Shown: positions 12,361 through 37,692 of the stretch, one piece after another
Numbering within the stretch: the stretch's first letter is position 1
How the letters are laid out: each line of letters opens with the position of its first letter
IMG/VR virus record: IMGVR_UViG_3300028585_000516
Coordinates: 1-43,795 of that record
Source of the DNA: a virus
Taxonomy: Duplodnaviria > Caudoviricetes
Reading direction: 5' to 3' (one strand)
Length of the DNA stretch: 43,795 bases
The notes under the pieces: model-generated
The model's input: the letters and a program-made list of their open reading frames with translations, nothing else
The model's database searches: none
What the model was told of the DNA's origin: nothing
Position numbers and translations under genes: made by a program

Positions 12361-13269
12361 CTAGGCCAAAGTCGAGAAAGCCTCACGCCACTGAATCAGC
12401 GCGGAAGACGAATTAGTCGGGTCAAGAGCCGAGAAGAAGACGTTCTCCTCCCCCGGCTCCAAGAGGATCTGGGACAACGTGGAGCGACCGTCCAAAGCGC
12501 CGAACCGGTCGATACGCCGGTCAGGGTTGTCGTCCTTCCAGGACTGGACTGTCCCGGAGAGCGGGTCGATCTCGAGGTGCTCGTCGTAAGCAAGCACGAC
12601 CTTCGATTTCAGGCCCACATGCCAGCCTCGGTTGCCGTTCAAACTGAATGACGAGCCGGGACCATGGAACGTGATCACAGGGGGTGTAGGTTCAGTGCCG
12701 CCGACGCTGAGGAACCCTGCCCTGGAGCCGGTCGCACGCTCAGACCGCAACGGGAACCGAAACGGTGTCCGCCACCCTCCAGACGACGACTCCGGCAGCT
12801 TCGTCAGCCTGGTCTCATTCGGCTCACCACCGCTGAAAACCAGCGGCTCAAACTGCTTGAATTCACACGTGATGCGACCAACACCGGAACGCATCATCGC
12901 CCCGAACTCCGGGTCATCAGACTGACGTGGCCGGCCATACACGCGCCGCCACGTCGGATCATCAACCGTCTGGAACTCCAACGGGAACAACCGGCCCGAC
13001 TCATCGCGCAGGCTCTTATTCCGCCACGCCGTCAAGAACAACGCCGCAGTCTGCTTCGCCTCCCGCATAGAGTCCCGGTTCGTTGCCAGGTCGAACTTCA
13101 AGATGCGAGCACCCAGAAAATCTCGACCCGGCAACAACCCGTCACGACCCTCACGCTCATAATCCGAATCCCGGATATCCGTGTGCGCGAAGTCCACACC
13201 ACTAATCAGCATGTCCCCGGCGCGTGAGCCAGTGTGGCCAACCTCGAGTCCTTGAAAGCGGATACGCAT
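12361..13269 (-). CDS. Distal tail (Dit-like) protein
   Basis: Immediately after tape measure; GRDFLGAR, RRVYGRPR, LEPGEE motifs. Confidence 0.85.
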   Translation of the reverse strand: MRIRFQGLEVGHTGSRAGDMLISGVDFAHTDIRDSDYEREGRDGLLPGRDFLGARILKFDLATNRDSMREAKQTAALFLTAWRNKSLRDESGRLFPLEFQTVDDPTWRRVYGRPRQSDDPEFGAMMRSGVGRITCEFKQFEPLVFSGGEPNETRLTKLPESSSGGWRTPFRFPLRSERATGSRAGFLSVGGTEPTPPVITFHGPGSSFSLNGNRGWHVGLKSKVVLAYDEHLEIDPLSGTVQSWKDDNPDRRIDRFGALDGRSTLSQILLEPGEENVFFSALDPTNSSSALIQWREAFSTLA

Positions 13270-16200
13270 TAAACCCCCACTCTCTGAGCTCGCCGATAGA
13301 ATCGCTGGAAGTCACTCGCATCCTCGTACTGCGAGCCAGCACTATGAGCGTGATAATGCAGCTGTTCGGCCAGACCACCACCGCCGGACTCAGCGAGCCG
13401 GTTGAGGTTGTCGAACTGCTGCTGGTTGAAGATGAACTCATTGCCGCCCGTGTTGTTGAGCACCTGAGAGATACCCTGGGGCAGCAGTCCGCCCTTGTCG
13501 CGGAATAGTGAGTTCACTTCACCGGGGTTGTAGAACCCGCCTGGGTGCCGCTCGAAGTGCAAGTGGCTACCCAGTGAGCCGCCGGTGTTGCCCTGCCGGC
13601 CAATGATCTGACCACCCTTGACCGTCTGACCCGGCTTTACCGCATACCCGTTCAGGTGGGCATAAGCGGTGTCGAACCCGCCGTGGTTCAGGACGATCAG
13701 GTTTCCGAGCGTCCCGAAGCCACCGGATGCACGCTTGACCACGCCACCCCATGCCGCACGGACAGGAGAGTTATGCGCTGCAGCGAAGTCCACGCCGTGG
13801 TGATAGTTGCTGTACGCGCCGGCCAGGTTACGCGGACCAGCCCACGATGTGATGACGCCCTGTGAGGGCCGGTTGAACCCACCAGGGTTAGCGGTGAAAG
13901 TGCCCTCGTAGTTGCCGCCAGCAGACACCTCAGTGTCCTTGCCGCGGATCCAGTCGAGAACCTCATCGACGCCCCAGTTGATGAGCCCACCACCGAGCTT
14001 GCCCATGGGACCAAACTCGGTCGCATGGTCCGCGATACCCGAAGTGAACGGCTTGATGAACTTCTCAGCCGTGTTAGCCAGACCGCCGCGGACCCAGGAG
14101 AACGCAGACGCCACGGTGTCCTTGATCCAGCTGCCGAAGCCGCCCAGTGGCAGACGATGCTGACCTTCTTCGACATCTCCACCCGTTATGAGCGTCTTCC
14201 GCCAGTCATAGACGCCTTTATGACCGCCCATGGCTTTCACCTCGGCGGCGGTGAGAACATGCTCTCCATTCGAAAGCTTCGCAACGACGTCGTCCGACGT
14301 CCCACTTCCAGGTCCCCGGACAGCACCACCCTTCGCGAACGCAGGGATTTTGCTGATCTCCCCAAGCCGCGCATCCGAGTTGACCGCTTTGGCGACCGAA
14401 TCAAACATGGCTTTGATGCCGTCATTCCAGACGAAATCGATCACAGAGTTGATCGGCTTGCGGAAGAAGTTCGCAACCTTCCGCCACGCCTTGTCGATAG
14501 CCGACACGCCATCCTTGACCATGTTGACCACATCGTTCTTCACGAAGTCGCCCACGGCCTTGAATACCGGCTTTAGCTTGTCGTTCCAGAAGCCCGAGAT
14601 GCGACCGACCAGCCATGACCAACGTTCGCTGATCCAACCAAGCGCGGGCTTGATGTAGTCGCGGTAGAGGACTCGAATCGCGGCGCCGAACCAATCAAGG
14701 ACTGGTTTGACGTACTGGTTGTACTTGTCGCGCATCCACAGTGCGGTGGTCATCCACTTATTAGCGATCCACCCGAGAACGGGTGAGATGACCGAGTCCC
14801 AGACCCATCGCATAATCGCGCCAAGCCGGTCTATCACTGGCTTCAGTATCGAAACCCATACGAACTGGACGGCGGTTGCCATAACTCCGAATGCGAGGCC
14901 AATGAATCCGAAGATCGGTTTAGCGATGGTGTTCCAAAGCCATCCAATAATGGATGCGACCGCGTCGAAGACAGGCTTAATGAATGCCAGCCAGATGCCG
15001 GTCAGGATTGTGCCCATGTTAGAGAAGGCGAACCCGATCCGCTGGAACATGGGCATAGCCACGTTGGTCCACAGGAACTTGATGATGTCGATCAGCAGGG
15101 TGAATACTGGCGCGATGACGCCGTTCCATACCCAGCCGAGCACGCTCCCAAGGACACTGAACGCTGTGCCGATGAACCCGAATATCGGGCTGGCGATGTT
15201 CGTCCACAGCCACGAGATGACCGAACCAATGGCGCTGAATACCGGGCTGAGGATCGTAGTCCAAGCCCAAGAGATGCCAGTGACAACCGCGTCGAACGCT
15301 GTCTTCACGTAACCGAAGACGGTCTGGATCGCACCCCACAACCACGTCGCGCCGGCTACGATCCCAGACCATGCACCCTGCAACATCTGCCACACCCAGG
15401 TAGCCCCGGTCACGATCCCGGACCAGACCTGCTGGAAGATCGGCAGAGCTGTACCCGTGAACCATGAGGCAACACCAGCGGCGGCGTCCTTGATCCACTG
15501 CCACACGCCAGCGATAACACCACCCTGAGTGGTGGACTGATCACGGAGGGTCGCGAACCAGGCGCCCAAGACGCCGAGCTTCTCGCCTACCCAATCAAGT
15601 GCGACACCAACCACGGAGAACACAACATCCGCCAGCCAGGTCAGTCCACGAGTGAGCCAGGTAAGCGCACCAACGGCGAGCTGAATCATGACCGAAGTCA
15701 GCTGGATCATCATCTGAGCCAGCCAAGTGAGCGGGGTGATCATCCAAGAGATGACCGTGCCCAGCTTCTCCATGATCCCGGTCGACTCGCCGCCGCCCGA
15801 GAACAGGGTTGAGAACAGGTCCCCCAGTGCGGAGCCGAGATCCTTGACCATCGGCCAGATCGCCTGGAACGCGCCAACTAGGGAGCCCCAGATCGTAGAA
15901 CCAAGATTGCCCAGGGACTCCCGGAAACGCTCGCTACCAGACCAGACAGCAGCCAATGCTGTAGCGACCCAGCCGATGGGACCACCAATAAACTTGAGGC
16001 CGCCGCCCAGTTTGGAGAGGCCGGCTCGCATCAGAGCCATTCCGCCACCGGCGTCACTTGCTGTTTTTGCCAGTCCGCCGATCCAACCAGCGACGGTCCC
16101 TGTGGTCGTGATGAGCGAACCCATCACGGTGACAATCTTTCCGAGCACCAGAAGTACAGGACCTGCTGTCACAGCCAGTCCAGCGAGGCTAATCAGAGCC

Positions 16201-17609
16201 TTCTGCTGACTACCCTCAAGGTTGTTCCACCATGTGACCGCACCGCGAATGTTCCGGATGAGACCAGTGAATAGCTCCCCGAACTTCACCCCCCATTCGG
16301 CAGCCGTGTCACCAGATACATCGACCAGAGCAGTGAACTCCGCCATCAACGGCTTCATCTGCGAGAAGAAACCGCCACCCTTGCCGCCCGCATCCAAGAA
16401 TGATGCGCCAACACGGTTCACAGCCGCCCACACGTTCGCCCACGCCGCCGTGAACGACTCAGCACCCATAATGGCCGCCGCGCCGCCCAAGTTATCTTGG
16501 ACCGCCTTCAGGTACATCTCGGAGGAGATCTTGCCCGCCGAAGCCATCTTGTAAACCTCATCCGAGGTCAGGCTCAACTGCTCACCCAGGTACTGGACGA
16601 TGGGAATACCCCGGTCGCCCAACATCATCAGGTCACCCGTGTAAGCGCGCCCCGATGTAGAGACCTTGTTGAACATCGAACCCATCTCAGCGAGTGATGT
16701 CTCAGCGATAGCCGCAGCATCACCAGTTGAGGTCAAGTACGCCTCGAGTTCTTTACCCGGCTTGATGCCAGCGGCGACAGCAGAAGCCGCAACAGTGGCA
16801 GCCTCGTCAAGACCGAAGGAGGTTCCCTTCACCGCTGCGAGTGCGTTCTCCATGATCGCTTCGACAGATGTCGCGTCGTGGCCCAACGCCTTCAACTTGG
16901 CCCGCGCAGTGTCGATACCGACCAGGCGCCGGAAACCGCCCGCCACCACAATGCCGCCGATCGCGGCCGCCGCGCCCGCAGCAGGCAGGGTGATGTTCTT
17001 CGTCATCGTGGAACCCACCGATGAGATCTGCTGTCCCACCTTCTGGAACTGAGTCCCAAGCCCCTTTAACTGCTCCCCAATGACCGGGAACGATGCGCCC
17101 ACTTTGTGGAGCGTGGTCTGTTCTTTCTTCAGGGCAGACTCGTGGGCTTTGGTGGCGGTGGTCGCCGCATCTTTGGCCTTGGTGACGGACTTCTGGGCCT
17201 CTTCGATGGCGACCAAGGATCCACGGTGTGTGCGGCGGGCCTTGTCCAGGTCCGCCTCAGCCTTGAGCACGTCGCCTGCGGACGCTTTGCCGGAGTCACG
17301 GACCTTCTGCAGGTTCTCCTCGGCCAGCACTACGCGTGCATGGGTAGCTCCTTGGGCCTGTCGTGCGCGGGTGAGCTGCTCCTCAGCTTTACCGATGTCG
17401 CGGGTGGCAGCCTCGACCTGCTGCATCGCCCGTGTGGATCCCGCCGTGATCGAGCCCCGGACAGCTTCACGTAGGGATGTCTGGATCGGCTTCGCCATAG
17501 ATGCGGCCGCCATATTGCCCAGGCCCACAAACTGCTTACTGACAGCCTTATGTGTTCCAGAGAAGGTGGGCACCACACGTACGGAAACTGAACCGATCAC
17601 TGAAGACAT
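13269..17609 (-). CDS. Tape measure protein with C-terminal M23 peptidase
   Basis: 1446 aa, Ala/Gly-rich, periodic W/F; HHGVDF, YAHL, HLHFE M23 motifs. Confidence 0.95.
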   Translation of the reverse strand: MSSVIGSVSVRVVPTFSGTHKAVSKQFVGLGNMAAASMAKPIQTSLREAVRGSITAGSTRAMQQVEAATRDIGKAEEQLTRARQAQGATHARVVLAEENLQKVRDSGKASAGDVLKAEADLDKARRTHRGSLVAIEEAQKSVTKAKDAATTATKAHESALKKEQTTLHKVGASFPVIGEQLKGLGTQFQKVGQQISSVGSTMTKNITLPAAGAAAAIGGIVVAGGFRRLVGIDTARAKLKALGHDATSVEAIMENALAAVKGTSFGLDEAATVAASAVAAGIKPGKELEAYLTSTGDAAAIAETSLAEMGSMFNKVSTSGRAYTGDLMMLGDRGIPIVQYLGEQLSLTSDEVYKMASAGKISSEMYLKAVQDNLGGAAAIMGAESFTAAWANVWAAVNRVGASFLDAGGKGGGFFSQMKPLMAEFTALVDVSGDTAAEWGVKFGELFTGLIRNIRGAVTWWNNLEGSQQKALISLAGLAVTAGPVLLVLGKIVTVMGSLITTTGTVAGWIGGLAKTASDAGGGMALMRAGLSKLGGGLKFIGGPIGWVATALAAVWSGSERFRESLGNLGSTIWGSLVGAFQAIWPMVKDLGSALGDLFSTLFSGGGESTGIMEKLGTVISWMITPLTWLAQMMIQLTSVMIQLAVGALTWLTRGLTWLADVVFSVVGVALDWVGEKLGVLGAWFATLRDQSTTQGGVIAGVWQWIKDAAAGVASWFTGTALPIFQQVWSGIVTGATWVWQMLQGAWSGIVAGATWLWGAIQTVFGYVKTAFDAVVTGISWAWTTILSPVFSAIGSVISWLWTNIASPIFGFIGTAFSVLGSVLGWVWNGVIAPVFTLLIDIIKFLWTNVAMPMFQRIGFAFSNMGTILTGIWLAFIKPVFDAVASIIGWLWNTIAKPIFGFIGLAFGVMATAVQFVWVSILKPVIDRLGAIMRWVWDSVISPVLGWIANKWMTTALWMRDKYNQYVKPVLDWFGAAIRVLYRDYIKPALGWISERWSWLVGRISGFWNDKLKPVFKAVGDFVKNDVVNMVKDGVSAIDKAWRKVANFFRKPINSVIDFVWNDGIKAMFDSVAKAVNSDARLGEISKIPAFAKGGAVRGPGSGTSDDVVAKLSNGEHVLTAAEVKAMGGHKGVYDWRKTLITGGDVEEGQHRLPLGGFGSWIKDTVASAFSWVRGGLANTAEKFIKPFTSGIADHATEFGPMGKLGGGLINWGVDEVLDWIRGKDTEVSAGGNYEGTFTANPGGFNRPSQGVITSWAGPRNLAGAYSNYHHGVDFAAAHNSPVRAAWGGVVKRASGGFGTLGNLIVLNHGGFDTAYAHLNGYAVKPGQTVKGGQIIGRQGNTGGSLGSHLHFERHPGGFYNPGEVNSLFRDKGGLLPQGISQVLNNTGGNEFIFNQQQFDNLNRLAESGGGGLAEQLHYHAHSAGSQYEDASDFQRFYRRAQRVGV

Positions 17610-17630: not shown

Positions 17631-18269
17631 TTATTTCGGCAAGTTGCTCGCGTACCAGACGCGACGCATCGCCGGGTCGATAGGTCCTGGTCTAGACACT
17701 TCTTCGAACTTCGGGTCGGGCTCTGCCGGCGCTTTAGGGGCCGGCTTCCGAGGTGGTGCGGGGTCGCCGGACAGCTCCTCGGCGGGGACGCCAAGTCGCA
17801 TCGCCCAGCTATCTGCCATGGACTTCTCGCGCACCTTCCGGCGACGCTCCATAGCGGTCTCCGGCATCGGCCACGGCTCCGGGTACTTCGGCTTAGCCGA
17901 CTTATTCCCATTGGCTCGCGCCGAGATGACCGGGGCCTCCGCCAAGATCTTCTTCAAGGTTGTGTCCATGCTGATCAGCAATGACTCCTTGAAGCCGACC
18001 TGTGAGTAACGCAGCCTCGGAGCTTCGCCCTCTTCTTCATCGCGGTGCGCCTCCAGCTCAAGCAGGAGGTCCGCCATCTCTTCGTCCTGAGACATGGCCT
18101 CACGGAACCGTGAGTACGGGTCAGGCAAGTCAAGGATCCGGTCGAGGAGCCAGCCGAAGCGGCCCTCTCCCAGCTCCTCGTCCAAGTCGATCCCGTACTC
18201 GGTCAACAGGTCCGACGTGATAGGACGCCGGTACCTGTCGAGAAGGTCCGCTAGGCCTTGGATTCCCCC
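17631..18269 (-). CDS. Tail assembly chaperone extension (-1 frameshift product, gpGT-like)
   Basis: Slippery GGGGGAA at 18263-18269; -1 frame reads GIQGLADLLDRY... into ORF 17631..18206. Confidence 0.85.
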   Translation of the reverse strand, partial: GGIQGLADLLDRYRRPITSDLLTEYGIDLDEELGEGRFGWLLDRILDLPDPYSRFREAMSQDEEMADLLLELEAHRDEEEGEAPRLRYSQVGFKESLLISMDTTLKKILAEAPVISARANGNKSAKPKYPEPWPMPETAMERRRKVREKSMADSWAMRLGVPAEELSGDPAPPRKPAPKAPAEPDPKFEEVSRPGPIDPAMRRVWYASNLPK

Positions 18270-18586
18270 AGGTCACCGGACTGATCGCGCACCTCGGTGG
18301 CGACGGCCATGATGATGTCCATCAGGTCTTCCATCGTGGCGTCGTCCTCATCTTCGAGAATCTTGTCCAGCGCCTCAGCACCATCGATCGCGTAGATCTC
18401 AAACATGACCTCGATGTCTGCGTTCTGCTCAGCGACCGCGGCGCGCTTCATCTCGCGGAGGCCTTTGCGCCCCTTCATCCCCTTCATGGGGTTCTGGAAC
18501 TTCACGACGTTGCCCTTGCTCGTCTTGTACTCGATGGGCTGCGACTTCGGGCGGCGGTCGCGCAGGGATGACAGTTCGATGCTCAT
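18251..18586 (-). CDS. Tail assembly chaperone (gpG-like)
   Basis: RBS AAGGAG, ATG 18586, ends LGESKA; between major tail and tape measure genes. Confidence 0.9.
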   Translation of the reverse strand: MSIELSSLRDRRPKSQPIEYKTSKGNVVKFQNPMKGMKGRKGLREMKRAAVAEQNADIEVMFEIYAIDGAEALDKILEDEDDATMEDLMDIIMAVATEVRDQSGDLGESKA

Positions 18587-18696
18587 TGGGTGTTCTCCTT
18601 CGTTAACGACGAAAGGCCCCCGTGTGGAGGCCCTACTGATTGGGTGTGGATGGTGTGAGGGGTGCCGCCGACCACCCAATGAATCGACGGCACCCC
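18584..18696 (-). promoter_or_regulatory. Structured intergenic RNA element upstream of the chaperone
   Basis: 15-bp stem (with GU pairs) and loop CAUUGGGU; complementary CACCCAAU sites at 18639-18646 and 18585-18592. Confidence 0.65.
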
Positions 18697-18719
18697 GGCA
18701 TAAGGAGAGGGCGACCTAG

Positions 18720-18818
18720 TCAGTCGCCCTCCGGGTCCTCGGGGGTATCGGGTTCGCCCGGTTCCGGGTCCGGCTCAGGTGCTGGCTCGGGTTCCGGTTC
18801 CGGGTCGGTCAGTTTCCC
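18720..18818 (-). CDS. Putative -1 frameshift extension of the major tail protein (Pro/Glu/Asp tail)
   Basis: G GGA AAC directly before the stop; -1 frame open for KLTDPEPEPEPAPEPDPEPGEPDTPEDPEGD. Confidence 0.65.
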   Translation of the reverse strand, partial: GKLTDPEPEPEPAPEPDPEPGEPDTPEDPEGD

Positions 18819-19468
18819 TCGGCCCAACCCTGGTTCTCGAGGCTCGCGAAGAACGCCGTGCCGCCAGAGATCTCAATCTCGGGGGTGTTCAGCTCTTCGT
18901 CCACGAACCGCTTGAACGTGACCTCACGGTCGATCGTGGTTTCGTTGCCCCACTGCTCAGCGCCGGCAGACTGGACCTTCACGGTGGGAAGGATCTTCGC
19001 CTTCAGGTGCTCGTTGCCGGCGGGTCCATCCCGGTAAACCGAGATCATGGTCCACTCTTCGTGGCGGGGGAACGCAGGCTTGTACTTCACCAGCTCGTTT
19101 GTGCCGACCTCCAGGTCGCGGTAGTCCGCACCATCACACAGCTCGTTGATGACCCGCTTGTCCTCCTGGAAGGTCACCGAGAAAGTGCCCTCCGAGGACT
19201 GAAGATCCTCGCGGGTGTTGTCGTAGTAGCCGTGCGACGGGGTGCCCTCAGTGGAGTCCTCCCGCTCGAAGCTGAGACCGTCAGCGGTGATGAGGCCGCC
19301 GTACTGGAAGCCATCGGCAATCAGGTCCACCAGCTCGTTGTTTGCGGTGAACAGTGTCACCGGCACATCACCCTCTGAACGGCGACGCCAGAACGTGATC
19401 GATTCGACCGCCTTGCGACGGTTGCTGCGGCGATGCCCGGCAGCCTTGTGTGTGTCAAAAGTGACCAT
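18809..19468 (-). CDS. Major tail protein
   Basis: GLITADG, TPSHGYYDNTRED motifs; position after tail terminator. Confidence 0.9.
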   Translation of the reverse strand: MVTFDTHKAAGHRRSNRRKAVESITFWRRRSEGDVPVTLFTANNELVDLIADGFQYGGLITADGLSFEREDSTEGTPSHGYYDNTREDLQSSEGTFSVTFQEDKRVINELCDGADYRDLEVGTNELVKYKPAFPRHEEWTMISVYRDGPAGNEHLKAKILPTVKVQSAGAEQWGNETTIDREVTFKRFVDEELNTPEIEISGGTAFFASLENQGWAEGN

Positions 19469-19506
19469 TGGTATATCCCCTTACAGGACGCGTTTGCGGC
19501 GAATAA

Positions 19507-19929
19507 CTATTGCGGTATTGGGCGTGACCGTAGATCCACCGCCGCAGAGGCAGGGAATACGGAGTCATTGGGGTAGTTGATCGCGGAAGGACCGACCCTC
19601 TGGCGAATACTGTCGAAGTAGAAAGCTGCCGATGTCTGGGATGCGGGGGTCGTGACGCCATGCCCGACGATCATGGAGAGGATCGCCTCGGCTATATCTT
19701 GCGACTCAAGCGGGGACCTGCCATAGACAACCAGCCGGACCTCTTCGACCCGTTCCCCGTCGCCTTCGGTGACGTTCATCCGTTGCACGTGGACCACGGC
19801 GCGACTGGTGTTGTTGAACACGTCCTCGGGCACTTGCACCACGGGGTGCAACGGGAGGCCGGCGTACTCTTCCCCCCGGAGCAGCGACACGACGCCGCGC
19901 ACCCCATCCGGGTAGATCAGGTTCTCCAT
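19507..19929 (-). CDS. Tail terminator protein
   Basis: Synteny and size. Confidence 0.75.
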   Translation of the reverse strand: MENLIYPDGVRGVVSLLRGEEYAGLPLHPVVQVPEDVFNNTSRAVVHVQRMNVTEGDGERVEEVRLVVYGRSPLESQDIAEAILSMIVGHGVTTPASQTSAAFYFDSIRQRVGPSAINYPNDSVFPASAAVDLRSRPIPQ

Positions 19930-31218: not shown

Positions 31219-31436
31219 GGCTGAGGCTCCCTCGCCTCGACGTGGGTGAGGGCGATTCCGCCGGCGTAGTCCTCGACGGACACCATTGCGCTGTGACCGC
31301 CCATGACCCATGCCGGAGTCCTGGTCTCGGATTCACGCCCGGGGCCGCTTTTCGTCCACGGCCAGAACAGCACCGGCGTGCCGATGGGGTGTTCAGCATT
31401 GAATTCATCGACGGCCTTCTGGGGCTTCTTGCTCAT
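31215..31436 (-). CDS. Hypothetical phage protein
   Basis: FN..HPIGTPV.FWP...TRTPAW; RBS AAGGAG. Confidence 0.75.
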   Translation of the reverse strand: MSKKPQKAVDEFNAEHPIGTPVLFWPWTKSGPGRESETRTPAWVMGGHSAMVSVEDYAGGIALTHVEAREPQP

Positions 31437-31455
31437 GTCGTGCTCCTTAACGCGG

Positions 31456-31485
31456 AAAGCGCCCTGTGCGTGTGCGTGGGGCGCT
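31456..31485 (-). terminator. Hairpin / possible terminator
   Basis: AGCGCCC/GGGCGCT stem followed by TTT. Confidence 0.45.
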
Positions 31486-31529
31486 GGGTGGGTGTTTGTG
31501 TGTCTGGCGGCTACGGGGCCGCTGGTGGC

Positions 31530-36965: not shown

Positions 36966-37093
36966 CACAGCTCCTTCCGGCTTGGCATGACGTTCAGTGA
37001 GGCGGTAAACCACACGCTGTCGAGGGTGATCCGGGCCTCCTCGGCTGGAAGGACGGTCACGCGGGACCCTGGGGTCGGGGCGAGAGTGGTCAT
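36965..37093 (-). CDS. 42-aa hypothetical protein
   Basis: ATGA and TGATG coupling at both ends. Confidence 0.55.
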   Translation of the reverse strand: MTTLAPTPGSRVTVLPAEEARITLDSVWFTASLNVMPSRKEL

Positions 37094-37692
37094 GAGGTCG
37101 GCTCCTCTGCTGCTGGTGCGTTGAGCTTGTCGATTGCGATCTTCAACTTGCCGGCCTCGTCCGCGGTGATCTCGCGGGGGTCGTTGAGGGTGCGCTCCAA
37201 CTGCTGGGATGCCCAGATGAGGGTCGCCCCGAAGTCGCCCTCAGACTTGGACATCAGGTACTCCCACTGGGCCTGCGTGATGGTCGCAGGGCGGGGCGCC
37301 TGCTCTTGGATTGGGTTGACTGTGACGGGCTTCGTCTTGCCCTGGGCGGCGCGTGCTTGGACGATGCGCCGCTGGTCGATGTGGGACAGGTGGCTGATCC
37401 TGATCCCACCGGGCGATTCCTTGCCGAACTTCACCGACATGTCGGCGTACAGGGTGACCTTGCGGCCCTTCCATTCGTTGGCCTCGTCTCCCCAGCATCC
37501 GACCAGCACGTCCAGGACTGATCCCGGCGGCCGCCAGACCCTGCCTTCCCCTTCCTTGAGGTGGATCTCGTAGGGCTGCTTGTGCCCGTTGTCCGGCTTC
37601 TCCTCCACCTTGGTGATGGTGAATGTGCGCGGACCGTCTGCCAGGTCTTCTGCGCTCCACTGTGTGGAATCGCGTTTGATTTTGATCTTCAT
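37090..37692 (-). CDS. Putative ssDNA-binding/annealing partner of the exonuclease
   Basis: W.G..VTLY.D..VKFG....GGIRISH motif; adjacent to YqaJ; function inferred from context. Confidence 0.6.
   Translation of the reverse strand: MKIKIKRDSTQWSAEDLADGPRTFTITKVEEKPDNGHKQPYEIHLKEGEGRVWRPPGSVLDVLVGCWGDEANEWKGRKVTLYADMSVKFGKESPGGIRISHLSHIDQRRIVQARAAQGKTKPVTVNPIQEQAPRPATITQAQWEYLMSKSEGDFGATLIWASQQLERTLNDPREITADEAGKLKIAIDKLNAPAAEEPTS

Follow-up and report, generated by a model that had tools for sequence, protein, structure and literature searches.

Between the major tail (tail tube) protein gene and the tail assembly chaperone (TAC) gene of many actinophage siphoviruses, the late mRNA carries a hairpin whose loop is complementary to two downstream sites, a proximal copy shortly behind the stem and another in the initiation region of the TAC gene. 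That this is a real and widespread cis RNA pairing element, covarying between lineages, is close to certain, and sequence comparison establishes the hairpin, its two partner sites, their covariation with the loop, wobble variation of the RNA type and the polarity of a pseudoknot. As to function, the element is probably a cis translational attenuator of TAC, tuned by the proximal copy as a decoy, that would limit the chaperone relative to the tail-tube protein. In the sample studied the element is restricted to actinophage siphoviruses and is common there without being universal.

The phage and its tail genes

The stretch of DNA analysed (the window) is a virus record of 43,795 nt taken at its full length, and on its minus strand it has a structural module of siphovirus type with portal, capsid, connectors, major tail, TAC and tape measure (Table 1). 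The G part of TAC occupies 18586-18251 (minus strand) and a predicted -1 frameshift at GGGGGAA (18269-18263) leads into GT, which stops at 17631. The tape measure protein has a metallopeptidase-like domain at its C-terminus, at residues about 1250-1370. Homologues of the major tail protein were found in 46 phage records, mostly annotated as major tail protein; the nearest named one, at 55%, is from Nesterenkonia and those in isolated phages are from actinophages, at about 24-34%, so that the host of the phage is probably an actinobacterium.

Close relatives are scarce. The source contig was the only match for the major tail protein in the viral and metagenome scans, the genome scan gave one prophage at 28%, seven further proteins 55-67% identical to it come without DNA, and a tblastn search of 50,697 phage records with the TAC G protein gave nothing. 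Because of this scarcity nucleotide covariation within the window's own family is limited to strain variants. Two strain contigs, X5 (5 differences) and X6 (7), with a number of changes too small to count for much, have the loop of the intervening hairpin H3 and flanking positions altered, with the main hairpin H2 and both target sites intact. Contigs from RNA runs are short, have a depth of 2-4 and lie on both genes, none of them spanning the element. No sigma-70-like promoter was seen on either strand between 17400 and 19700, which is a weak test for actinobacteria.

Table 1. Features of the major tail/TAC region of the window; energies in kcal/mol
Feature	Position	Strand	Basis or remark
Tape measure gene	13269-17609	-	identified as tape measure
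TAC gene, G + GT	17631-18586	-	GT part matches phrog_2624
Start-region target (spacer, AUG and 1 nt)	18583-18592	-	10 bp with loop, -19.5
Shine-Dalgarno (SD)-like AAGGAG of TAC gene	18595-18600	-	sequence
Hairpin H3, weak UUUCG tail	18614-18633	-	folding, -15.1
Proximal copy (decoy)	18639-18646	-	8 bp with loop, stacking energy -15.0; otherwise predicted unpaired
Linker, 12 nt, C/A-rich	18647-18658	-	may be long enough to span stem S1 as H-type pseudoknot
Main hairpin H2	18659-18696	-	stem S1 of 14 bp plus closing U-G, -28.8; 3' U-tract absent
Loop (guide), UCAUUGGGUG, 10 nt	18673-18682	-	loop-target pairing
Hairpin H1, on stop codon of major-tail extension	18707-18731	-	folding, -18.8
Slippery heptamer G GGA AAC and likely -1 extension	18720-18818	-	third-position variation in repeat
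Major tail (tail tube) protein gene, 219 aa	18809-19468	-	phrog_476, E 3e-29
Two further 8-bp loop matches (19572-19565, 19524-19517)	19517-19572	-	inside end of presumed tail-terminator ORF; membership uncertain

The hairpin and its partner sites in the window

The first-pass annotation, made from the letters of the window, had described a 15-bp stem with G-U pairs that work on the mRNA strand, a loop with two complements downstream and a second GC hairpin between these, and had thought the matches unlikely to be due to chance. Measurement bears this out with small adjustments. The stem has 14 bp (18696-18683 with 18672-18659), or 15 if the closing U18682-G18673 is counted, and holds three G-U pairs; the hairpin folds at -30.2 kcal/mol on the mRNA strand as against -22.5 on the other, 7.7 better, and the 161-nt region around it folds with z = -4.0. 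The octamer CACCCAAT is present three times in the window, at 18585-92 and 18639-46 on the minus strand and, in the loop itself, at 18673-80, and the match at the TAC start extends to 10 bp, one longer than had been claimed. This start-region match is the best site for the loop on the entire 43.8-kb minus strand, -19.4 kcal/mol being reached by two of the 2303 overlapping windows on that strand, both of which contain it. Shuffling the 84 nt downstream of a fixed hairpin produced two or more 8-mer complements once in 20,000 trials.

H3, which is the GC hairpin between the targets, shortens the path from H2 to the TAC start. H2 is not called as a terminator, with UCACACCAU coming directly behind its stem, and for H1, which the first-pass annotation had not listed, a matching partner site was looked for without one being found. 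In a genome-wide scan H2 was the sole minus-strand case among 35 strong hairpins, and two of the 41 long-loop hairpins on the plus strand passed a loose threshold; these two, at 31431-31489 and 37071-37128, have complements downstream of their long loops and are probably chance occurrences in GC-rich sequence.

Upstream of the hairpin, frameshifting at the heptamer at the end of the major tail gene (18818-18812, minus strand) would add 30 codons, rich in Pro, Glu and Asp, up to a stop at 18722-18720. The codons of a 6-nt repeat within this extension differ at third positions and a change at 18732, present in four other DNA runs, is synonymous, so to judge by its sequence the extension looks to be really coding in the window's phage. 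Of 27 lineages, that of the window alone has a canonical slippery heptamer where its major tail gene ends. The stop of the extension lies 23 nt ahead of the H2 stem, one nucleotide less than had been reported, and a ribosome terminating there is likely out of reach of the stem. Pseudoknots that stimulate -1 frameshifting begin 5-9 nt behind the slippery heptamer. The H2 stem starts about 115 nt behind it, and with the heptamer absent in 26 of the 27 lineages H2 does not belong with them. Behind H1 there is a 7-nt anti-SD stretch (18708-18702) able to pair with the TAC SD; it was rejected as a candidate, since three of the four related runs differ from the window in it, at 18703 and 18705.

Occurrence among phages

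In the first six distant phages compared (MrSmee, Elesar, ArV2, Popper, AbbyDaisy and xhp1) a hairpin follows the major tail stop in each, the loops differ in sequence while each matches a proximal copy and the TAC start region, and an ORF of 50-58 aa separates the two copies. The same architecture is present in Kumotta, GTE8, BiPauneto, Mollymur, D29 and TM4, and in Terror, LimaBean, Phabuloso, Pons and EstebanJulior. A pipeline blind to these matches took in 262 loci and placed the TAC start in 229; 24 were excluded as no TAC was found, seven as they were cut before the major tail stop, and ChewyVIII and P1201 as the next gene is not TAC. The 229 loci reduced to 210 distinct regions, 186 of them with a hairpin, and to 33 lineages at 60% tail-protein identity. 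The hairpin was chosen by lowest energy without regard to targets, and one member of median score represented each lineage; in unannotated loci the TAC start was set by homology and SD score, and the lineages are not fully independent of one another.

A hairpin was present in 27 of the 33 lineages and absent in six (L153, L210, L221, L222, lambda and Javan7). Three lineages failed the pipeline test: in the window and in Rousseau the rule took a neighbouring hairpin, both being counted as misses, and in L229 (the L226/L229 lineage) the hairpin has a U-run and a short loop for which targets are absent. Among phages obtained after the rule was fixed, Che8 was positive and the pairing was absent in Corndog, phiC31, HK97, SPP1 and TP901-1. 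As these five and the six lineages lack the element, tails can be built without it. The sample consists of tail-protein homologues and a few model phages and is not an estimate of prevalence.

Many lineages are without the small ORF between the two copies; where present, it has its stop about 30 nt before the TAC AUG. In phages of the Arthrobacter/Actinomyces type it is conserved, has 49-58 aa (L002:2249-2401, L007:2259-2435, L091:2246-2395) and gave no PHROG match; the GTE8 ORF at the corresponding position matches a virion structural protein family. At L032:2400-2700 an insertion behind the small ORF splits it from TAC, with the hairpin and decoy retained. In G101 (L260), where no TAC homologue was recognised, two perfect complements of the loop stand in tandem ahead of the next gene, and this hairpin is probably another member. 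L213-L218, L237 and L239 have a different hairpin after the major tail gene, long, imperfect and AU-rich in its loop, with no TAC homologue behind it. Most cluster A loci (L093:2590-2612 and others) have a 13-mer, which we take to be stoperator-like, in a small hairpin between the major tail stop and the element.

Covariation of loop and targets

The first-pass annotation had named loop-target covariation among homologues as the way to check it, and across lineages loops on average suit their own targets better than those of others. For the 27 lineages the mean stacking energy of a loop with the TAC window of its own locus, from -22 to +15, was -17.8 kcal/mol as against -9.35 when loops were swapped, and the sum of -479.5, compared with a null of -260.9 +/- 18.3, was reached in none of 200,000 permutations. 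The own TAC window ranked first in 13 of the 27 and first or second in 21, and in 20 it was in the top 5% of all windows along its locus. The proximal copy behaves likewise, with -16.7 for own and -9.9 for swapped pairs over 25 lineages, and again none of 200,000 permutations reaching the observed value.

Controls were run on 25 lineages, being the 24 that pass and the window with its hairpin set by hand. Loops had no signal where the major tail gene itself starts (43,143 of 50,000 permutations) or at the predicted tail-terminator start (7,002 of 50,000), which rules out generic matching to SD sequences. In a sliding version of the swap test the signal peaks on the TAC start, with z -11.7. The TAC-side targets lie between -22 and +14, mostly on the SD and spacer with peak coverage from -11 to -3, and in the annotated cases the decoy ends at least 20 nt ahead of the next annotated AUG. 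Of 22 lineages compared, the start site is predicted to be stronger than the decoy in 14, equal to it in 3 and weaker in 5.

RNA nature and pseudoknot geometry

Stems of the 27 lineages hold 55 G-U pairs on the mRNA strand as against 11 on the other, and the mRNA strand is the more stable in 22. Cluster A-like regions, 54 of 54, have a 9-nt start target that varies solely between C and U opposite a loop G, at four positions, and variation opposite a loop C or U is never seen. When 24 of 30 Arthrobacter-type loci were aligned, 9 of 14 stem pairs had double-sided changes, with no compensatory change in the five loop:decoy core pairs of the same alignment. Beside that core a loop U goes with a target A in 17 of the 30 loci and a loop G with a target C in 8; in the remaining five, which are off the pattern, the search had landed on the stem or on a shorter loop. 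The G/C type needs four changes on the tail-protein tree, at least two of them forced, and the two types could come from block recombination.

The positions of the paired bases within the loop point to H-type pseudoknots. At the proximal site the loop bases that pair lie directly against the 3' arm, L2 being 0-1 nt in 21 of 25 lineages, and the spare loop bases are on the 5' side in 23 (L1 > L2), equal in two and on the 3' side in none; at the TAC site the corresponding counts for 5', equal and 3' are 20, 3 and 2. The linkers are C/A-rich across lineages and range from 12 nt across 14 bp in the window to 0-4 nt in several others, with the decoy 0-4 nt behind the predicted stem in the GTE8 type, Pons, L255, L259 and the first cluster A copy. 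Since a linker of 0-4 nt is too short for an H-type fold, the base of the stem would have to open there. The stem is intact in the nested folding ensembles of 20 of 25 lineages, so loop pairings, if they form, must be pseudoknots. The distance from stop to loop is uncorrelated with that from loop to decoy (rho 0.30, p 0.17, n = 23).

In the window, equilibrium folding of growing 3' ends with ViennaRNA is dominated, once the RNA reaches 18560, by a nested state (P 0.75-0.93) in which the 5' arm and loop are zipped onto the TAC start and first codons. Strand invasion of this kind was rejected as a general state, swapped arms being equally good (24,960 and 12,978 of 50,000).

Proposed function and alternatives

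Two mutually exclusive partners for the loop had been proposed for the window from the start, and swap-test covariation, wobble-only variation and H-type polarity now speak for them; the direction of the ON and OFF states and the consequence for tail protein stoichiometry are what we infer. With the element as an attenuator, the loop on the late mRNA would pair, as an H-type pseudoknot, with either the decoy or the TAC initiation region. The decoy, being transcribed first, would capture the loop and leave the TAC start open, and the start-region copy, made later and predicted to pair as well or better in 17 of 22 lineages, would then take the loop and block 30S loading. A strand paired there is expected to block 30S binding, as is established for SD-sequestering RNAs. 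On each mRNA, TAC G/GT may then be initiated in a burst of limited size or at a fixed fraction, the element acting as a timer or as a partition, and ribosomes terminating on the small ORF between the sites might strip the start-region helix and so couple TAC to upstream translation. A ligand would be dispensable in such a mechanism. The ordinary terminator at the same junction in Corndog and TP901-1 fits a need for a step-down there; the lineages with the decoy predicted to be the stronger site, 5 of the 22, go against attenuation.

One late transcript has to provide hundreds of tube subunits and far fewer copies of the chaperone and tape measure protein, and for this there is so far a partial explanation. 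The frameshift in TAC adjusts G relative to GT and not tube relative to chaperone. An attenuator at this junction would offer a concrete and mutable mechanism in D29, TM4, Che8 and Muddy, with M. smegmatis genetics at hand. If confirmed, the loop-plus-decoy module would be a compact translation attenuator that is tunable and can be re-targeted, and phage genomes edited close to the major tail gene would need a loop that still fits its targets.

A wider role for the loop, as a programmable tethered guide or hub of the actinophage tail operon, is a tentative reading of the sequences that we consider rather unlikely. The loop would go in order to the major-tail leader, closing the tube-protein cistron, then to the decoy and then to the chaperone start, and tube protein, chaperone G/GT and tape measure protein would be timed and proportioned without protein or ligand; a switch widespread in phages, D29, TM4, Che8 and Muddy among them, would then be hidden from sequence-profile searches, its logic alone being conserved. 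For the third site that this supposes the signal is weaker and falls between -100 and -20 relative to the start of the major tail gene (16 of 50,000 permutations; z -2.5 to -3.5), and a leader match is clear in Phabuloso (12 bp), L208, L190, L232 and Che8. As this signal is unevenly spread within families, |z| 3.5 was reached by one control window and the matches of the window itself lie within coding sequence, the leader site is suggestive only. The major tail leader also has a short inverted repeat at 19488-19515 (minus strand), possibly a processing site, that is kept in two related runs diverging beside it, and small hairpins are found in the major tail leaders of many relatives.

Improbable, though it draws on the same structural evidence as attenuation, is autoregulation gated by protein, in which TAC G, the tube protein or the product of the small ORF would lock one of the pseudoknots and so sense free tail protein. 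A stem that is alike in length across lineages and not in sequence would suit it, as does the precedent of T4 gp32 acting on its own leader, described in the part of the report available (PMC10690425). Against it, lineages share no nucleotides that would suggest where a protein binds, their TAC G proteins have diverged far and many of them lack the small ORF.

Quite improbable as well is that the hairpin without U-tract, with its proximal pseudoknot, protects an mRNA 3' end or steps transcription down, and that the match at the TAC start is secondary. On this account the loop may pair in addition with the major-tail leader and close that cistron, to which the leader signal (16 of 50,000) and the two 8-bp matches in the window lend something, and terminators do stand in the same place in TP901-1 and, going by the accessible passages on it, Corndog (PMC4351075). 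The signal at the TAC start is much stronger than that in the leader, however (z -11.7), the latter being patchy and matched by a control window, five or more U in the next 9 nt are found behind the stem in two of the 27 lineages, and the accessible passages on D29/L5 RNA-seq mention late termination only after gene 32 (PMC5712189).

A very unlikely alternative is activation, with loop pairing near the TAC start opening or presenting the SD and the proximal copy giving the OFF state. In the IncI repZ pseudoknot loop pairing exposes the SD and is activating. A target 5' of the SD or at its edge in a few lineages (Muddy -21, L257 -22) and a small local hairpin into which the window's SD can fold would be compatible with this, but the helix mostly lies on SD, spacer or AUG, and that of the window covers spacer and AUG, where it cannot favour initiation.

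It is still harder to credit that the copies are DNA-level repeats, either protein boxes or scars of recombination or duplication by the optional ORF, with an incidental inverted copy in the loop of a terminator: both copies are direct repeats and flank the small ORF in many lineages, but variation by wobble only, the strand bias of G-U pairs, the loop-side polarity and a motif different in nearly every lineage do not go with it. That ribosomes frameshifting into the major-tail extension flip the switch, as the first-pass annotation suggested, has next to no plausibility as a general mechanism, for although the extension looks coding, H1 sits on its stop and the TAC SD has a possible partner in the anti-SD stretch behind H1, the heptamer is found in one of 27 lineages, the stop is 23 nt from the stem and the anti-SD stretch is changed in three of four runs.

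Comparison with known systems

The view that the element has no named family agrees with searches of Rfam 15, in which the best match within 18400-18950 of the window has E 0.1, all being well under the gathering score, and 14 loci gave none. Titles and the beginnings of abstracts in the full-text literature do not describe the element, and subscription papers and the supplements of PMC5737381 and PMC10690425 may differ in this; six loop motifs were absent from six of the nine supplementary files of PMC10690425. The available passages of PMC4351075, PMC3203893, PMC5712189, PMC10690425, PMC5737381 and PMC4615214 contain no such loop-target pairing.

Terminators occupy the same junction in some phages without the element. 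In Corndog, according to the accessible part of the report, an intrinsic terminator follows the major tail gene (PMC4351075), in HK97 one is annotated there, and TP901-1 has an ordinary U-tailed one at the major tail/TAC junction. They are in the same place and are likewise GC-rich stem-loops able to step expression down, but they have short loops, U-tracts and no loop-complementary sites, whereas the element has loops of 7-20 nt, mostly no U-tract (five or more U in 9 nt in two of 27 lineages) and covarying targets.

The SAS/ESAS motifs of Cluster K mycobacteriophages are, in the passages available, multi-gene motifs with inverted repeats read as DNA sites (PMC3203893). They resemble the element as repeated motifs near phage translation starts, and the element differs, as far as those passages go, in having a motif that changes with the lineage, is confined to one junction and has its match in the loop of an RNA. 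In the window the 8-mer is at one junction alone, and there is no signal at neighbouring starts.

The IncI/IncB repZ/repA pseudoknot is formed by a hairpin loop with a downstream initiation region, has a short upstream ORF in between and activates; a trans antisense RNA blocks it and its target is 5' of the SD. The pairing of a loop with a distant initiation region and the intervening short ORF are common to both, but the element has its target on SD, spacer or AUG, a decoy in cis and no antisense RNA that has been seen. In the window the target is on spacer and AUG and no sigma-70-like promoter was found, a weak test for actinobacteria, so that it does not fall within this class.

The E. coli rpsO/S15 leader pseudoknot is bound by its own product and has one conserved fold. 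That of the T4 gene 32 leader, in the accessible part of the report, controls initiation and is also bound by its own product (PMC10690425). In both, as in the element, a pseudoknot governs the start of the adjacent gene; compared from sequence, the element has no known binding protein and two or three alternative partner sites.

Nearest in its working is the 5' UTR of the MS2 maturation-protein gene, in which, as given in the available passages, long-distance UCS:SD pairing is delayed by a metastable hairpin (PMC4615214). There too a strand in cis pairs with the ribosome binding site of a low-copy virion gene, and an earlier competing structure gives a window for initiation. In MS2, to follow the same passages, the antisense is hidden in a transient hairpin, the end state is a nested helix and the genome is ssRNA, whereas in the element a stable hairpin presents the antisense in its loop, competition comes from a copy of the target sequence, both states would be pseudoknots and the genome is dsDNA. 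The element thus shares with the levivirus switch a cis strand complementary to the ribosome binding site and works alike, without its cloverleaf 5' UTR, transient hairpin and ssRNA genome and so without being a member. It is likely an undescribed RNA switch, a variant of ribosome-binding-site sequestration that has no named family, and an RNA family defined by the logic of loop and target and not by sequence, such as would be missed by libraries of covariance models, hints at how others may be found.
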